A DNA stretch of 54,267 nucleotides, counting the filler, from Stramenopiles sp. TOSAG23-2 (lineage: Eukaryota), in assembly GCA_900128395.1 (NCBI GenBank). It is 4 parts of 4 records of this genome, joined end to end, with 100 filler letters (N's around TTAATTAATTAA, not from the genome) between each part and the next. Parts side by side here need not be neighbours in the genome. Positions count along the whole stretch, not along the records: positions 27,281 to 40,728 come from LT649800.1; 3 more parts are not named here. One strand, 5' to 3'. Positions 6,034-40,828 of the stretch are shown here, piece by piece (the stretch's first letter is position 1; the number at the start of each line of letters is the position of its first letter). The notes below the pieces were generated by a model. The model was not told where the DNA came from. It did no database searches and saw only the letters and a program-made list of their open reading frames with translations. The position numbers and the translations under genes are program-made.

Positions 6034-6634
6034 TTTTTGGTATATATACTATATATAATTTAATTATATCTCAAATAATAATATAAATAGACAGAATAAA
6101 ATGGGTGTATTACCACACAATAATCATATAATATATATATTTATATGTATGTAAATATATAATGGTAGTTCAAATAAAGAACTAAAACTATATGACATGG
6201 ATATAGTAAATACGTACAAATATCGATATATATATATATACGACAGTTTGTAAACCATCCATGCACCATCATTATTTGTGTATCTTTTATGTCGTCGTCG
6301 CGTCAAATCACCACTAGTAGTCAGAAGCTATTCCAATACTGTAGTAAGCCGCCAGCAGTCGTCTCGAAAGGAAAATCTTTTTTTTTCTTTTTGATAGATC
6401 GGATCCTCTTCCTCTAATACCTTAAACTTACTGTCCTGTAGTCGACTACCTTAAACTCAAAAAAAAAAAAGATAAAGGGCATCATTTTCTTCTTCCATCT
6501 CTACTACATCCAATGTGCCAATTCTAATTCATTCAATTTCAAAAAAATATAAAAAATTGAAGTAAACAACAACTTTCAAAGAGGAAACAACTTAAACTGG
6601 ACGAAAGAAGATACAGTTTTCAAATAGCAGAACG

Positions 6635-9038
6635 ATGATGAACGGAAGTAGCAGCAGCACTACCACCACCACCACCACCACTACTACCACCACCACCAAT
6701 AATGTAATTAGTTTATTGAATGATGATGATGATGATGATGACAATAATAATAATAATACCACTTTGAATTTAACAATAAAACACTATGAAAAACAATTAC
6801 AACAAGTAAACAAAGACATCAATCAATACGAAAGTAAATTAAGACCATTGAGATCAAGGCGAGAACAATTAATAGATATTATAAACAAGAAAAAAAACGA
6901 GCTTGAATTATTACCAACGAGTAGGCCAGGTAAATTTTTAGAAAAGTTTCCTTGGGATAACGATGTAAAAGAAATTTTAAGAAATATATTTAATATTCAT
7001 CAATTTCGTAAGCATCAAAAAGAGGCAATAAATGCAGTACTTTCAAAAAAGGATACATTTGTCGTAAAGCCAACGGGTGGTGGAAAAAGCCTAATATTTC
7101 AAGCACCTGCAGTACTCGAGGAAGGATTCACCCTTGTTGTCTCCCCATTAGTTTCATTATCTTATGATCAATCATTGTACTTACAAGAATTAGGAATTAA
7201 TGCCAAAGTCTTAGATGCGTCAACAAGCAAGGAGGAAGTCAAAAATATATTTAATGAAATGATTATCAATAAAAAAAATCGTGATGTTGATTATAATTTA
7301 GAAATGATGAAGATTTTGTATGCAACACCAGAAAAAATTGTTAAGAGCAAACGTTTTTTCCAGAAAATCCAAGTAGCAGCTAAATTAAAAAATTTAACTC
7401 GCATTGTTATAGATGAAGCGCACTGTGTGAGTAGTTGGGGTTGCGATTTTCGACCAGCCTATCGTCGATTAGATTTATTGCGAACGTCCAAAGATGTTGA
7501 TCAAATACCTATATTAGCATTAACAGCTACTGCAACGAAAAACGTTCGAAATGATGTACAAAAGATATTAAAAATGAAACACACTGAACTGTTTTTAGGA
7601 AGTTTTAACCGTACAAATCTATTCTATTCCGTAAAGGAAAAACCTTCAAATTACGATAAATTTGTCTCAAATATCATAGATGAAATAAATATATGTAAAA
7701 CAACCTACAATCGTAATATTGATCCGTGTGGTATAATATATGTTTTGTCCAGAGGTGATGCAGAAAAATTATCAAAAACGTTGAATAGTAATTATCACTT
7801 GAGGAGTAAGCCATACCATGCTGGTTTAGAAGATGATGCGAAGAAGTTAGCACATGAAAGTTGGAGAGATGGAACGATAAATATCATCGTAGCAACTGTT
7901 GCCTTTGGTAAGTTAATTCTATTCCCCTACACCAATAAAAGATTTCCTCTCTAACGCCTCATTCTTTCATACGCTACGCTCAACAGGTATGGGAATTGAT
8001 AAACCAAATGTACGTTTTGTTATTCACTCGACATTGTCAAAATCAATGGAAACGTATTTACAAGAGTCTGGAAGAGCTGGTAGAGATGGAAACTTGTCAC
8101 GTTGCACGTTGTTTTATCGTGGAGAAGACATAGCAAAAGTAAGCTCACTTATACATGATAGCAATAATAAAGATGTCGCACAACGAAATTTATATAATTT
8201 TATTTGTAAATATTGTGAATATGATGGAAAAACTTGTAGAAGAATCTCAATGGCTAGAGTCTTAGAGGAAGAGGAACCAGAAAATATTAAATGCAACAAT
8301 TTATGTGATATATGTTGTTCAAAGGATCTAGATTCTGTAGAATACGATGCTACAAATGCAGCTATTCAGGTAATTAAATTATTACAATTAATTAAAATGA
8401 ATAATGTGCGAGAAAATATTTCAATGATTCAATTGTTAGACAGTTGGCTGGGGAATGGTAAAATTATAAAAGAATTGAAACAGTTTGTAGATGATACTGC
8501 GCTTGTAAAATTAAAAGCACCTAAAAAGGAAGTTGCAAATAATAAAAGTAATTTAATGAAAATTATTGTAAAAATGTTGACAGAAGGTTATTTAGAAGAA
8601 ATTTTTATTGCGAATTTATATAATTGGAATGTTTATGTTGATGTAAGCAACAAGGGAAATATGTTTTTAGGACAACAACAATCATTGAGTAATAGTCGTT
8701 TTGATAGCAACAGCAGTAGTTCTAGTCGTGGCAATAATAATTCTAATAACGCATTGATGATAGTTCTAGATCCACATAATAAAAGAAAGGAAAGCTTTCC
8801 TAGTAGTAAAAAAAAAAGAAAAAATAATGGTGGTAGTAGCAGTAAGAATAATAGCAGCGGCAGCAGTACAGTATCATCTGCCAATAGTAAAAAAAAGGGA
8901 ACAAAGGAAAGAAAAAAAAGAAGGAAAGAAAAACATATTGTAAAAAATAATGATGGTAATGATGTACAAGTAATAAATTTGATAGATGATGATGATGCTA
9001 CAAATGCTGTATCATCAAGTGATGATTTTGAAGTCTAA
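6635..9038 (+). CDS. RECQL: RecQ helicase, RECQL/RecQ1-type; exons 6635-7907 and 7987-9038
   Basis: PTGGGKS, DEAH, ALTAT, YHAG; splicing restores VATVAFG|MGIDKPNVRFVIH; QESGRAGRDG; Zn-binding CRR...CDIC; YATPEKIVKSK typical of RecQ1. Confidence 0.93.
7908..7986 (+). other. Spliceosomal intron (79 bp)
   Basis: GTAAGT donor, CTAAC branch at 7951, CAG acceptor; joins the two RecQ ORFs in frame. Confidence 0.93.
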
Positions 9039-13575: not shown

Positions 13576-13675
13576 NNNNNNNNNNNNNNNNNNNNNNNNN
13601 NNNNNNNNNNNNNNNNNNNTTAATTAATTAANNNNNNNNNNNNNNNNNNNNNNNNNNNNNNNNNNNNNNNNNNNN
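13576..13675. other. Artificial contig linker
   Basis: N44-TTAATTAATTAA-N44 (stops in all six frames). Confidence 0.97.
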
Positions 13676-27180: not shown

Positions 27181-27280
27181 NNNNNNNNNNNNNNNNNNNN
27201 NNNNNNNNNNNNNNNNNNNNNNNNTTAATTAATTAANNNNNNNNNNNNNNNNNNNNNNNNNNNNNNNNNNNNNNNNNNNN
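27181..27280. other. Artificial contig linker
   Basis: N44-TTAATTAATTAA-N44. Confidence 0.97.
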
Positions 27281-28533: not shown

Positions 28534-28893
28534 ATAAAAACAAAACAACACTGGCATTCCATCCAATCTATGATTGTTATTGAGCAACATACATGATATT
28601 AGGAAGAATGACAATAATAATAACATGATTTCAAATGAATATAAACCGAATTTACTTGATATGTTATCCTTAAACTTGGGTTTCATTATATAAATGATTG
28701 ACTGGTATTTTTACCCATTTTAAGGCAAAATCAATTTTACTATACATTGTAGTGTACGGAGTAAGGAGTGACTTTTATAGCTGTACGCAGTGCTACCCTC
28801 TAAACCGTGTCAAAACTAAAACTGTGCAAACCGTGTCAAAACTGTGCACTTAACACTATTCACTATGGGGAAAATATTCATAATTTTTTCTAT

Positions 28894-29087
28894 ATTTTCG
28901 GATATTTGCTATTTTTTCCAAAATATATGAAAAATAAAATTGGCATTTTAGAAAACGATACGTAGTAAAAAAAAAAAAATAAGAGANNNNNNNNNTATTT
29001 TCGGATATTTGCTATTTTTTCACAAATATATGAAAAATAAAATTGGCATTTTAGAAAACGATATGTAGTAAAAAAAAAAAATAAGAG
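28894..29087. repeat. Near-identical ~90-bp duplication either side of a 10-N gap
   Basis: TATTTTCGGATATTTGCT...AATAAGAGA twice; unmerged scaffold overlap or haplotypes. Confidence 0.85.
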
Positions 29088-29202: not shown

Positions 29203-31335
29203 ATGGATGAAAGTGATGATGTAGGTATTGACGTCCCGTTTATTTCGTGGTTGAATCGCCGTGAGATTTTAAATACAACGACGTGTGACGAAGATTGTGT
29301 AAATGAACATATGATTTTAGAGGTAATACCGACGTCTTTAAAGAATATACATGGTGGTCAACTTACTTCCGTTTGTACTATACTAGGCGATTCAAGAACT
29401 GGGAAATGTGTTGTTGTTGACCCAGGAACAGATGAGCCAGATATGATAATTGATATTATACATAGTCGCGGCTTAACCTCTATCGAGTACATATTAATAA
29501 GTCATGCACATATAACTTCATATTTTGCTGCATTTGCCTTACAGAAAGTATTTCAAACGGCACAAATTGCACTTCATAAAGATGATTTATTTCTATGGCG
29601 TTCGGCAGAAGTCCAATCAAATTTATTTGGTGTTGTGTTGCCAGGAGCGCCGAAAATTATGCCACCGCGATTTAGTGTTGATGAAACAAATTTTATGATG
29701 CCTGGCTCAAGAGGAATCGCTGTACAAAAATTGCAGCAGTGTTTGATAACGTTGGGACATATGGATAAAAGTGCTATTCAAGCTCAGTCAGGTGTATTTC
29801 GTCAAAGGACTGCTGAAGCTTTAAATCGTTTTAGGCGTTCTGTTGGTTTGATGGATGTGGTAGATGATGAAGGTGCGCAAAGTGATCGGGAGAAGCTAGA
29901 AGCATTGAGAAATTCAATGTATGGACATGCTGAATATGAAGCAATGGTAGAAGAGCTAACGTTATACTTTACGAATTTATTTGACAACGAAGAAGCCGAA
30001 AGAATAATGCAACAGGCTGGATTTGATGATGAGGCAGAGGCAAGAGGAAAAGAAGCTGTTGTGGGGGATGAGGTGAAAGGTAATTTCTTAAATCGTGGAA
30101 TATGGTTACCAGCTACCATTACAAGGGTAAGGAGAAATAATACTGTAGATCTACAATTTCATCATGGGGAAGAGGAACCTGGGGTTATTCGATCTAGAAT
30201 CGCTGGTGCTGGTAAGTGAATTTATTTATATTTCCCCTAATCAAATATAATTTTTATACATTACATTATTATTTAAAAATAATAATTTTTTTCTAACCAA
30301 CATGACATATTCGATTTTCTCTCTTTACTATGTATATATATATATATATACTCACACACTTACGCTCCGCAAGCATGGTGGAAAACAGATGGAACAGATT
30401 ATGAATGGTGGAGTGATCCCGATATTATATTGGAGCATGGAGAATTGTTGGAGGTAGAAGGCTGTAAAGACCTCAATGTGATGGTGCTGCATTCGCCAGG
30501 GCACACACCAGGTAGGTATATATTTTTATTCCATCATTATCAATAATAGAAAATGTGAAAAAATCTCTTCAATAGAATTAGATTACAAAATATAAGAGAT
30601 AATATACATCTTACGTCAAAAATGTTGCATCTTTAATGACTAACATGTATAATATTTTTCTTATATGCATCTATTTATATGCATATCGATGATATGTATG
30701 GCGTATGAAAAATACTAATCAATTGTTTTGTAGGAAGTGTATGTTATCACTTTATTAATGAGGAACTTTTGTGTACCGGACACACCCTTTTAAAAGGTGG
30801 CACAGGGCCATTAACTATAGGTGCAAATGTAACATCGTTGCTGAAAGAGGGGATACCACGTATAATGAAATTGTCAAGAGCAAATGCAGCATTAGACGAC
30901 GAGGAAAAAATGATTAAAGTATCCCCTTCAATGGGCCCAACAACATATTTGAATAATGAAATCGAGGACAATCCAATATTTAAAGCAAAGCAAAGGGAAC
31001 CTCAGCGTAGACCACCTCCCGTGAAACCGGAAGTTTCTACATTAAAAGTACCAAAAAGGATTGGGTGGGGCCCTGGTACACGGGGTCAAAATGTCTCAAT
31101 GTTACAATGGATTTTGATATATTTAGGATACATGTTGGAGGAAGACGTTGCATTTGCAGTGGGGTTTTTTGGTCCAAAAACTCGGTTGGGACTGCAAAAA
31201 TTTCAAGCCGAAATGGAAATTGTCCCAAATGAACCAGCAACATATGATAAGAAAACTAGAGAAATATTGAAAAAGACAGTAGATGAATATTTGTCGTCTT
31301 CTCCTAATAAAAAGAATAACAGATCAAAATTATAA
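29203..31335 (+). CDS. Metallo-beta-lactamase-fold (glyoxalase II/YcbL-like) protein with two peptidoglycan-binding domains and a Tudor-like domain; exons 29203-30211, 30374-30511, 30734-31335 (582 aa)
   Basis: VVVDPG, ILISHAH, LHKDD; exon 2 (absent from ORF track) PDIILEHGE...LHSPGHTPG; exon 3 SVCY...CTGHTL; PGBDs PGSRGIAVQKLQQCL..LG...GVF...T..AL..F and PGTRGQNVSMLQWIL..LGY...GFFGPKTRLGLQKFQ; both introns GT-AG, phase 1. Confidence 0.85.
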
Positions 31336-31427
31336 AGAAGATTTATAATAACGGTATTTTAAAAGATTGAGGGGAAGAAATAAGAAATGACAATTATTTT
31401 GCGTTGTTGTACAGCTACATATTAATC

Positions 31428-31484
31428 TATCATATCATATCATATCATATCATATCATATCATATCATATCATATCATATCATA
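31428..31484. repeat. (CATAT)n microsatellite
   Basis: About 11 perfect units. Confidence 0.95.
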
Positions 31485-32240
31485 GACATTTTTAAATTGC
31501 TTTATGTATATATATATATGAGTAAGAGAATTAATATATTCGTATGACATATCATACGTACATAATGATAATATACTCGTACGAATTCGTACTATATTAA
31601 AAGAGTATCAATTTTGCAGCGGGGCATGAAAGCTTTACTATTAGTAGGCAAGGTGGCAAAGATAACCTTTCGCCAATGCCAAACGGAAGATCTGAGATCC
31701 GCGAGATAAACTTTTTCCACCCTAGTTGGAGAGGATGTTTCGAAATTTTTTCTAAATGTAAGCGAAGTTTTGTTAACAAGTCTTTTCAAAAGTTTTAGAG
31801 AGATTTTTTTTAAATTTTGGATTAAATAAGTGGAATTGTGTTTTTTTATGTTCTACGCGCGTATACGTACATATTTTAAAAAAAGTTAATGCATGTATAT
31901 ATATACGTATATTATATATATGCATATAAATTGTACGTCCCGTACTTTGTAAAATACTACGAAATGAATTATTAATGCTAAAAATAATTACACACTGCTG
32001 ATGTGTCATCACAGAAATTTATTATGATAATAGATTTTGCCGTAGGCTGAGAAAATAGTGGAAAATATGCCAATGAAACAACTACAAATTCATATTATAT
32101 GTACATCATATATAAAAAACTATCATAAAAGTAAACTCTGGTAATAAAACAGAGAAATTCTTGGGGCAAGTTCGCAGCTGCCTACCACGACGCTCTCCTG
32201 GAGGTCCAAGATAGCGTAGCTACCGTAGGGACTCCATTGA

Positions 32241-37295: not shown

Positions 37296-38636
37296 TCATA
37301 ACTTGCTAGAAACGAAACCACTACCACTACCATTATCAATCATAGTTTTCCTATAATCAAGCGCCCAATCCAGATGATACTGACCATGGATTTCTGATGC
37401 TTTATCAATTGAAATTTCATAATCATACCCTAAGCCATTACCAATATTTAAAAAATTATGATAAAGCCACATTTGGTTCGAAAAATTTTGAGGTGCATCC
37501 CTCCATATTTTAGTTGATTCTTCCGTATCTTCTTTAAAACGATGACCAACGTCATCGATTGCAATACAAGCAGGTCTACCAATGCCAACCATATCGGCAA
37601 GATCAGTTTTGATTGTATCTTCTAACTGATAACCATGAACATAACCACCAGTGACGCACAATTTGACCTTTCCCGCTTTTTTTGTCAATCTAATTGCACG
37701 TACTCTATCTGCAAACCAAGTTGTTTTCAAACTTTCTGGCACAAACGTTCCTTCAGGCGCATTGTCACCAACTACTACGCCCCGCGAAGCTCTCATTGCA
37801 CGGCCAAAGTCACCCGAAAATTCCACTAAATCAACTAAATTTTCTTGATCCAACCAACTTAATACTTCAGCACATTCTTTCCATTTGAAACCATTATCAT
37901 CTAAATCGGAACAATGAATTTTTACACTTACAATAAAATTTGGCAATACAACATTTCGTATACCACGTAAAATACGCAACAAGAGTCTTGCTCGATTTTC
38001 CAAGCTACCACCGTACATATCTGTGCGTTTATTGGTGGTAGGACTGAGTAGAGAGCATACCAAATAGCCATGGGCTGCATGAACTTGCATTCCATCCCAA
38101 CCACATTCATTTAACACTTTTGCCGTATGGACCCATTTTTTAACGAAAAGGTCAAAGTCATCAACTGTGCAAGCTCTGGCTTCCGCTGGCATTTCCAAAC
38201 CACTTCGTTTTCTAGTGCTTCCTTTTGGAATTACACCAGCAGGCCCAGCGTTTGGACCAACTGTAAGGTCTACCGTATATTGATTGACTTTTAGTCCTGC
38301 GTTTGATACTTGTCCAATAAAAATACTTCCACCAGCTTTTGAAACCTTTGCCCATTTTCGTAACATTTCTCTTTGAAGACCATCATATGTATGTGGATAT
38401 TCTAAATCAATTGCAACATTACCAGCACGCTCTAAATATCTCCGATCACATACAATATTTCCACTGATAATTAACCCAATACCAGCTTGGCCCCACTTTT
38501 CATAAAGTCGAATGTGACGATTTGTTACCCTATTCTCTGGTGATGCTAAACCTTCTGTGAGAGCTGACTTTAATAGGCGATTTGGACAGATGTGTGAACC
38601 AATTTTTATTGGTGTTTGCCATTGAAGAGATGCCAT
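37296..38636 (-). CDS. NADH:flavin oxidoreductase (old yellow enzyme family)
   Basis: PNRLLKSALTE, GLIISGN, GWDGMQVHAAHGYL, NKRTDMYGGSLENRARL, ADMVGIGRP; start at MASLQW assumed. Confidence 0.92.
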   Translation of the reverse strand: MASLQWQTPIKIGSHICPNRLLKSALTEGLASPENRVTNRHIRLYEKWGQAGIGLIISGNIVCDRRYLERAGNVAIDLEYPHTYDGLQREMLRKWAKVSKAGGSIFIGQVSNAGLKVNQYTVDLTVGPNAGPAGVIPKGSTRKRSGLEMPAEARACTVDDFDLFVKKWVHTAKVLNECGWDGMQVHAAHGYLVCSLLSPTTNKRTDMYGGSLENRARLLLRILRGIRNVVLPNFIVSVKIHCSDLDDNGFKWKECAEVLSWLDQENLVDLVEFSGDFGRAMRASRGVVVGDNAPEGTFVPESLKTTWFADRVRAIRLTKKAGKVKLCVTGGYVHGYQLEDTIKTDLADMVGIGRPACIAIDDVGHRFKEDTEESTKIWRDAPQNFSNQMWLYHNFLNIGNGLGYDYEISIDKASEIHGQYHLDWALDYRKTMIDNGSGSGFVSSKL

Positions 38637-39587
38637 GTTTTGTTGTTGTTGTTGTTTTTTTATATTGCAATGACTCATTTTTATCTTCATGGTAGAATAT
38701 ATCTTTATTATATACATTAATATTATGCATACTAACCTGCCTTATATAGGTATAGTAGAGATAGAGTTTAAATGCATGCGGACCCAACTACAAAAGCGGA
38801 CCGACGAAATCAAGCGGACCCAAATTGGATCAAAAAATGAATTTCAAAAAAGGATTTTGTGATTTTATTTTTTTTTAAATAAATAACTATGAAATATCAC
38901 TTTACAAAATATAATCGGATATTTTTATGATAAAAATAATAATAATCGGCATATATGGAGTCATATTTTGCCAAATTTTCCCATCCGGACCCTAATCTCT
39001 ATAACCCTATTCTACAACTCTAACATTATGCTATTCCTATGCTATATATATTGCCGATTTTTTTTACAGGGATAAGAATAATATCCGATAATTAATAATT
39101 ATAGTTTATATCCAGAAAGTGATTCTATGATTATTTTTAGATGATAAAAATTCCTGAAGGTTATCAAATTAGGCAAAATCCATCGGCTAGCTATTATTCA
39201 ACAGTAGGCGGCACGTAGCTGCTGATTAACTAACGACAGAGATTGTATTCTTACGTGGTATTCTAGCGCCTTCCAGCTTTCCTATATATATGTTTACATT
39301 TCGAAGAAAAACGAAGAAGGTTTTTTGGATAATAATTCTTTTTTGATGAAAAAAGTAGGGGATTGTGTGTGAGGTGCTGTGAATATTAATATAATTTTTT
39401 TTTAATATTACAACTAAATATCATGCAATTTTACACATATTACGACAAAAATATACATTATATAATATATACATAAACATAAATATATAAATGCAAGTAA
39501 AATAAATGACAAGAAAGAATACATTTTGTAAATTATAAGTATATTATTTTGTTCAAAGATATATATACATATATATTATACATCATC

Positions 39588-40728: not shown

Positions 40729-40828
40729 NNNNNNNNNNNNNNNNNNNNNNNNNNNNNNNNNNNNNNNNNNNNTTAATTAATTAANNNNNNNNNNNNNNNN
40801 NNNNNNNNNNNNNNNNNNNNNNNNNNNN
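40729..40828. other. Artificial contig linker
   Basis: N44-TTAATTAATTAA-N44. Confidence 0.97.

Follow-up and report, generated by a model that had tools for sequence, protein, structure and literature searches.

Proteins of the metallo-beta-lactamase (MBL) fold carry a canonical metal signature comprising HxHxDH, then a histidine, then an aspartate, then a histidine. These seven ligands divide, in the glyoxalase II-type members, into site 1 and site 2. The described systems closest to the gene reported here are the small single-domain MBL thioesterases of the YcbL type; LACTB2, an MBL-fold protein with a complete metal site; Tudor-SN, in which a Tudor barrel is inserted into a nuclease-type fold; stramenopile proteins built of many Tudor/Agenet repeats; and bacterial and phage wall enzymes carrying PG_binding_1 modules. 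The gene analysed here occupies positions 29203-31335 (+ strand) of a 54,267-nt stretch of DNA from Stramenopiles sp. TOSAG23-2 (GenBank assembly GCA_900128395.1; four parts joined end to end with filler, the part concerned being from LT649800.1). The whole of this stretch is referred to below as the window, and all features of the gene lie on its + strand.

The encoded protein comprises, in order, an acidic N-terminus, the N-terminal half of an MBL fold, a first peptidoglycan-binding-type domain (PGBD1), an acidic linker, a Tudor domain, the C-terminal half of the MBL fold, a second such domain (PGBD2) and a basic tail ending in -SKL. Three well-known modules are combined in an arrangement that the searches made did not return elsewhere, and each is altered at positions that usually define its activity. 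The explanation favoured here, to which as a whole we give about even chances, is that the product is a mosaic MBL protein with binding modules, located inside the cell, probably in the peroxisome, and no longer a binuclear hydrolase.

A spliced and expressed nuclear gene

Three exons joined in frame gave 1749 nt, encoding 582 residues plus the stop codon (31333-31335, at the end of exon 3). Exon 1 (29203..30211) covers residues 1-336 and the first base of codon 337, and contains the acidic N-terminal extension, the MBL N-half, PGBD1, the helical linker and the Tudor domain. Exon 2 (30374..30511; 138 nt) encodes a Trp-rich segment together with the beginning of the MBL C-half as far as H-S-P-G-H-T-P-G. 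Exon 3 (30734..31335) encodes the remaining MBL C-half, a basic/proline-rich linker, PGBD2 and the tail with -SKL. Both introns are GT..AG and phase 1. Intron 1 (30212..30373) is 162 nt long with 22% GC, and intron 2 (30512..30733) is 222 nt long with 23% GC and interrupts the conserved HTPG-S motif between its glycine and serine; the exons have a GC content of 38-46%, against 22-23% for the introns. The start codon is the first ATG downstream of an in-frame stop. The same methionine begins P0157, a public 582-residue gene call on a 1893-nt contig.

Splicing was read from RNA runs of three marine metatranscriptome studies, each of which held one contig without both introns: record 15 of X7 (1778 nt), record 19 of X8 (1564 nt) and record 5 of X15 (738 nt). 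The path of the RNA contigs along the window (...30210, 30373-30509, 30732...) was unbroken in contig coordinates, and boundaries placed in this way are ambiguous by 1-2 nt. Contigs of the DNA run X3 retained the introns, one spanning 29893-30271 and another 30505-31418, across both exon-intron borders. In the table of joints, the second splice joint (30509 to 30732) was recorded in all three RNA runs and not in the single DNA run. The first joint was visible only in the table of contig pieces, with a simple repeat in intron 1 (30322-30363) skipped; there, RNA contig records 5, 15 and 19 lacked intron 1, whereas DNA contig record 11 contained it. The original prediction had arrived at the same three exons and 582 residues and had taken the gene for an intron-bearing host gene. 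Spliced RNA at both junctions, the gene call P0157 and the ordinary eukaryotic neighbours described below bear this out.

The gene stretch was present in 20 public runs of 11 studies, including seven RNA rows from five studies. Two of the 20 are small DNA runs and a possible source of the sequence; most of the others are marine or seawater metagenomes. Among the runs examined by contig, the gene was found in poly(A) or oligo-dT libraries of two studies (X7 and X15). The RNA contigs differed from the gene at five nucleotides, four of them synonymous and the fifth giving E230D. P0157 is colinear with the gene model without gaps (569/582 residues identical), and none of its 13 substitutions falls at the seven metal-motif positions or in the SKL. 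It is labelled only as a glyoxylase-like hydrolase of the beta-lactamase superfamily and belongs to a cluster of 88 near-identical sequences. One member of that cluster, P0158 (366 aa), has the correct exon 1-exon 2 junction, leaves the reading frame beyond residue 351 and reaches a stop 15 residues later; either a faulty assembly or a broken allele may account for this. The gene is real, transcribed, spliced, nuclear and lineage-restricted, and belongs to an uncultured marine protist.

The MBL core and its inserted modules

The core is, by sequence comparison, a YcbL/glyoxalase-II-like MBL fold. Pfam Lactamase_B (PF00753) scored 56.2 bits over two stretches of P0157 (cut-off 22.7) and 37.2 bits with exon 1 alone. 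The best solved relatives were YcbL (2xf4; E 4.4e-11) and TTHA1623 (2zwr; E 2.3e-9), each aligned in two stretches flanking the insert. The ten PDB sequence matches at E <= 0.1 include 2xf4, 2zwr, 7ev5, 6rz0, 7l0b, 1xm8 and 2qed, of the glyoxalase II/YcbL group. The N-half (29362..29667; residues 54-155) was defined by Lactamase_B and the alignments to 2xf4 and 2zwr. The C-half consists of a first piece (30418..30511; residues 352-383) and a second piece (30734..30981; residues 384-465), the latter defined by alignments to 2xf4, 2zwr, 7ev5 and relatives. Residues 56-144 correspond to YcbL 13-99 and residues 352-411 to YcbL 107-163, and an insert of about 200 residues lies at the junction of the two halves, where YcbL has about seven. 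In a MAFFT alignment with 15 relatives, the core reached the usual C-terminal end of the family at about residue 465.

Three of the seven canonical metal ligands are kept, namely the site-1 histidines H101, H103 and H380 (30502-30504). Motif 2 (29503..29520) reads H101-A-H103-I-T105-S106 instead of HxHxDH, so that T105 replaces the aspartate and S106 the histidine. H399 (30781-30783) stands for the bridging aspartate and M449 (30931-30933) for the last histidine, and all three site-2 ligands and the bridging aspartate are gone. Relative to YcbL and TTHA1623, the protein has HAHITS for HxHxDH, G-H for G-D and S-M-G for G-H-G. With three of seven ligands kept, a standard binuclear hydrolase is excluded. 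Thioester hydrolysis by glyoxalase II requires a binuclear metal centre, and with the site-2 ligands and the bridging aspartate replaced the protein was not filed as an enzyme of that group.

All seven metal-motif positions in P0157 are as in the window. The nearest relatives, P0038 (196 aa) and P0141 (120 aa), are fragments of about 40% identity and both carry H-x-H-x-T-S; the remaining 13 of the 15 aligned relatives carry the canonical D-H. Because the T-S change is common to two relatives at this distance, the motif is taken to be conserved and not decayed, and it looks fixed in a small clade. A scan of metagenome loci returned 12 loci, all ordinary MBLs of 26-39% identity, and HxHxTS was in none of their matched parts. 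The ESM Atlas gave no usable match for exon 1, and P0157 retrieved bacterial MBL clusters only, at 0.77-0.78, which is a lead at most. The closest relatives with canonical motifs, P0172 and P0106, have an N-terminal extension with a weak match to ARMET_C, a SAP-like family (16.8 bits, cut-off 23.5); P0122, from Physarum, has an N-terminal extension of another kind.

The first part of the insert is PGBD1 (29704..29850; residues 168-216), a PG_binding_1-type module of three predicted helices, and a second PG_binding_1-type module, PGBD2 (31069..31266; residues 495-560), lies C-terminal to the MBL core. The two are 34% identical over 64 residues, and PG_binding_1 (PF01471) scored 37.2 bits over two stretches of the whole P0157 (cut-off 23, E 3.4e-9). 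AlphaFold2 (AF2) predicted three helices for PGBD1, with a predicted local distance difference test score (pLDDT) of about 90. In Foldseek, this 122-residue model, of PGBD1 with its linker, gave nothing at E <= 0.001. Its only matches of low rmsd (1.3-1.7 Å, local, over 48-52 columns) were to the PGBDs of three wall enzymes, namely YcbB (6ntw), a phage endolysin (5nm7) and an L,D-transpeptidase (4lpq), with non-significant E-values of 3.5-5.0. Single-sequence PDB searches with the PGBD1, PGBD2 and Tudor pieces gave non-significant matches only.

Relatives retrieved with the PGBD segments by phmmer were proteins with four to eight PG_binding_1 copies, and the only named cluster among them was a Clostridiales 'peptidoglycan-binding protein'. 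Horizontal transfer of the modules from bacteria was weighed as an explanation but not taken up, since the high rank of the bacterial multi-copy proteins comes from the summed scores of their repeats and has no bearing on origin. PG_binding_1 also includes the matrix metalloproteinase pro-domain, a zymogen lid which is not known to bind murein and which carries a cysteine-switch motif after its third helix. In the translated sequence, no cysteine follows either PGBD, and the sole cysteine of PGBD1 is in the first helix.

Between PGBD1 and the Tudor domain lies an acidic helical linker (29872..30015; residues 224-271). It was modelled by AF2 as three helices (pLDDT 57-68), residues 226-283 hold 15 acidic and six basic residues, and it had no Pfam match and was assigned to no family.

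The Tudor domain (30058..30207; residues 286-335) gave no Tudor-type Pfam family at E <= 1 in either P0001 or P0157; the variant P0158 matched Agenet at 13.2 bits (E 0.13). The domain was recognised through its relatives and its predicted structure. Of the 153 fetched proteins, 120 matched no segment but the Tudor one by phmmer. Many are very large, with up to 29-30 matched stretches and a best E of 1.2e-116, and all nine checked against Pfam scored strongly for Agenet, Tudor_5 or 53-BP1_Tudor. The five named poly-Tudor relatives are all from stramenopiles (Pythium, Tribonema, Phaeothamnion, Ascophyllum and Laminaria), and the Tudor type points to a stramenopile as the host lineage. Ten such proteins (P0007, P0010-P0017 and P0022) hold 10-30 Tudor/Agenet repeats and reach 7637 aa, the named ones being of oomycete, xanthophyte, phaeothamniophyte and brown algal origin.

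An AF2 model of the domain, built from an alignment with 40 poly-Tudor rows, had five strands and a pLDDT of 83.5. Its top Foldseek match was the second Tudor domain of PHF20 (3qii; target template-modelling score (TM) 0.91, E 9.5e-4). The Foldseek matches listed were all Tudor or Agenet and include SND1/Tudor-SN, TDRD1/2/3, SMN, PHF1/19/20 and an Agenet reader. The family profile, searched against PDB sequences, retrieved the Tudors of PHF20, PHF20L1, KDM4A, SGF29 and 53BP1. On this model, residues 286-335 are a true five-stranded Tudor barrel. At the pocket positions, which we take to form the Tudor ligand cage, F295, W301 and F319 fit the 40 relatives.

No counterpart of the architecture was found, and we consider it new on a comparison with general protein collections and metagenome loci, among which there was no eukaryote-specific proteome set. 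Among the fetched proteins, apart from the gene's own fragments and variants, none joined an MBL with a PGBD or a Tudor domain, or a PGBD with a Tudor domain. The exhaustive search of representatives covered the best 150 of 740 matches, in which multi-repeat Tudor proteins dominate and could hide weaker mixed architectures. Of the word-index searches with exon 1, the one against longer proteins returned only a multi-PGBD protein (P0004), and the one for near matches a fragment of the gene itself (P0005) and an ordinary MBL (P0006). The search with exon 3 against longer proteins returned none from 5469 candidates. The architecture was not found among the papers listed on PG_binding_1 in eukaryotes, protists or phagotrophs, or on peptidoglycan-binding domains together with Tudor and MBL domains; term matching in that search was loose, and absence is not established by it.

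Predicted location and function

Two features bear on where the protein resides. Over the first 40 residues the net charge is -9, and hydropathy in 19-residue windows peaks at 1.37; the protein was therefore considered to have neither a signal peptide nor a membrane segment. The C-terminal Ser-Lys-Leu (31324..31332) follows a basic low-complexity tail and is a candidate type-1 peroxisomal targeting signal (PTS1). A C-terminal tripeptide of the SKL type is the canonical PTS1 and is recognised by PEX5 (PMC8919083). An exact -SKL after a basic flexible tail is the strongest form of this signal. It was present in six of the six cluster members that reach the C-terminus. Of 67 stop-to-stop open reading frames of at least 100 aa in the window, two end in [SAC][KRH][LM], both in SKL. 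The other is an Old-Yellow-Enzyme-type NADH:flavin oxidoreductase (37296-38741, - strand; Pfam Oxidored_FMN), a second candidate peroxisomal protein. LACTB2, also of the MBL fold, has a predicted PTS1 and was detected in peroxisome proteomes (PMC8919083). On these grounds the present protein is read as intracellular and probably peroxisomal.

In the favoured explanation, the protein would be internal to the cell and most likely taken into peroxisomes by the PTS1 route. Its MBL pocket would no longer work as a binuclear hydrolase. A single metal would probably still be held there by H101, H103 and H380, with H399 close by, and the pocket would serve a non-canonical mononuclear reaction or ligand binding. 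The two PGBDs and the divergent Tudor barrel would be binding or assembly modules and not catalysts. The selective retention of the site-1 histidines, together with their conservation in relatives, suggests that the single-metal pocket is still used.

Several points weigh against this explanation. Metal binding, catalysis and import are predictions from sequence, and the structural models cover the Tudor domain and PGBD1 with its linker. Taken singly, the PG_binding_1 copies score just under the cut-off of 23 bits (PGBD1 17.4 bits, PGBD2 22.7 bits). The Tudor pocket has L302 where 38 of the 40 relatives have an aromatic residue (Tyr or Phe), H320 where 39 are acidic (Asp or Glu) and H321 where 37 have Asp; with three conserved positions altered, its ligand cannot be inferred. 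Tudor domains belong to proteins of the cytosol or nucleus, and one would not be expected in a protein of the peroxisomal matrix. Conservation of the -SKL covers only sequences at least 97% identical and provides no evolutionary test. Finally, tagged rat LACTB2 failed to target peroxisomes, as reported in PMC8919083.

The loss of four of the seven metal ligands would also be expected if the protein were a catalytically dead scaffold of the cytosol or nucleus, with a Tudor domain set into an inactive enzyme fold in the manner of Tudor-SN. Such a scaffold would recognise a protein mark or bring a complex together, and its -SKL would be fortuitous or masked. The structural matches of the Tudor domain include SND1/Tudor-SN, SMN and an Agenet reader, its type derives from the poly-Tudor proteins of stramenopiles, and the weak SAP-like match in the canonical relative P0172 points the same way. 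We regard this as possible but doubtful. H-x-H and H380 are kept and the motif is conserved at about 40% identity, which would not be expected if the site had no role; the Tudor pocket is itself altered at three conserved positions; and the -SKL is of the strongest form. A peptidoglycan-sensing or -processing protein for bacterial prey or endosymbionts was the function tentatively put forward in the original prediction; on this view the PGBDs would bind murein or muropeptides and the MBL core would act on them. That prediction stood up well in its reading of the domains: the YcbL-like fold interrupted by an insert, the two PGBDs, the Tudor barrel (here without a direct Pfam call), the absence of a signal peptide and the unrecognised architecture all agree with the present results, and its coordinates for both PGBDs and the Tudor domain were correct to about 20 nt. 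The retention of three of seven metal ligands, the departures in the Tudor pocket and the -SKL end go beyond it.

The proposed peptidoglycan function was weakened. Two PG_binding_1-type modules are present, their best detectable relatives are the four- to eight-copy proteins including the Clostridiales 'peptidoglycan-binding protein', the PGBD1 model locally resembles the modules of three wall enzymes, and the organism shares seawater with bacteria. These resemblances to wall enzymes were non-significant, however, and the same Pfam family covers a pro-domain that is not known to bind murein. Since it has neither a signal peptide nor a membrane segment, the protein lacks an obvious route into the lumen of the phagosome or to the outside; the location predicted from the -SKL does not favour the role, and with the binuclear site lost there is no competent hydrolase centre. 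A role in peptidoglycan sensing or processing is accordingly rated as unlikely. It is very unlikely that the gene is a young chimera, produced by domain shuffling and transcribed without a selected function. The searches made returned no orthologue of this architecture, all three domain types depart from the family consensus and P0158 changes frame. Against this, the frame stays open over 582 codons in the window sequence as well as in P0157 with its 13 substitutions, four of five nucleotide differences are synonymous, the transcript is spliced and occurs in poly(A) or oligo-dT libraries of two studies and in further RNA runs, and the T-S change is common to relatives of about 40% identity.

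The least probable proposal, and a highly improbable one, joins elements of these: a single-metal MBL enzyme, imported into the peroxisome, whose PGBDs capture muropeptides from digested bacteria would constitute a step of eukaryotic peptidoglycan salvage without a described counterpart. If true, it would tie the breakdown of bacterial walls to the peroxisome. D-amino-acid oxidases reside in that organelle (PMC8919083).

The mosaic intracellular protein favoured here is of interest on several counts. The gene is widespread and expressed in surface-ocean data, and it provides a concrete case for asking what an MBL pocket with site 1 only does, what role peptidoglycan-binding-type domains have inside eukaryotic cells, and whether the functions of Tudor barrels extend beyond chromatin and RNA biology. 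If functional, the -SKL would make the protein an unexpected addition to the peroxisomal proteome of marine protists.

Genomic surroundings and comparison with known systems

The region is AT-rich eukaryotic DNA (25-37% GC per 2-kb window), and the genes around the MBL mosaic gene are ordinary eukaryotic nuclear genes. In the window they comprise UTP6, a RING+BRCT protein, a TPR+villin-headpiece protein, a DEAD-box helicase, a SET-domain protein, an MFS transporter, a cation-efflux protein, the Old-Yellow-Enzyme-type reductase, an EF-hand protein, Hop2 and an ankyrin+F-box protein. The DEAD-box helicase (6596-9038, + strand) extends over two overlapping open reading frames, one with DEAD and the start of Helicase_C (6596-7954) and one with the end of Helicase_C (7917-9038), the split probably being due to a short intron or a frame change. 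The same pattern of 44 N, 12 bases and 44 N occurs at 13576-13675, 27181-27280 and 40729-40828, and one of these adjoins the MFS gene that lies upstream of the MBL mosaic gene.

Repeats flank the gene on both sides. An 86-nt direct repeat (28893-29081) occurs twice, the copies being 97% identical and spaced at 103 nt around a gap of 9 N, and the pair with its gap ends some 120 nt before the start codon. In the DNA run X3, summed depth reached 1348 in the bin 29000-29086 and was about 6 over the gene; the repeat may be an element of high copy number, or its A-rich end may cross-match. Just 3' of the gene lies a pentanucleotide microsatellite (31430-31480 and 31503-31539). RNA and DNA contigs touching 31503-31539 continue into unrelated sequence on both sides, and this segment is probably a short dispersed repeat.

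Of the described systems, YcbL/GloC-type glyoxalase II and TTHA1623 share with the present protein the order of motif regions and the point at which the domain ends C-terminally. The present protein differs from YcbL by about 200 residues added between YcbL positions 99 and 107, and from both enzymes by having three of seven ligands, an acidic N-terminal extension, a C-terminal PGBD and the -SKL. LACTB2 resembles it as an MBL-fold protein with a predicted C-terminal PTS1 (PMC8919083), and differs in having no PGBD or Tudor domain; it was absent from the PDB sequence matches at E <= 0.1.

Tudor-SN (SND1/p100) is similar in that a Tudor domain interrupts an enzyme fold, and SND1 structures were among the Foldseek matches (2hqe, 2o4x, 3bdl, 3omg and 5m9o). 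Its host fold is, however, a staphylococcal nuclease and not an MBL, and it has no PGBDs. The pocket residues of the present protein differ from those of its own Tudor family. The stramenopile poly-Tudor/Agenet proteins (e.g. P0007 of Pythium insidiosum, 2087 aa with 29 matched stretches) have the same type of Tudor repeat. In the six examined, only Tudor-type Pfam families scored strongly and the rest were weak partial matches, whereas the present protein has a single Tudor copy, placed within an MBL fold and carrying L302, H320 and H321. Bacterial and phage PG_binding_1 wall enzymes (6ntw, 5nm7 and 4lpq) and the multi-PGBD proteins share the sequence pattern of the module and resemble it in its predicted three helices. 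Those proteins are exported and pair the module with a domain that cleaves or builds the wall; in the present protein, which is eukaryotic and predicted to be intracellular, the module is joined to a degenerate MBL core.

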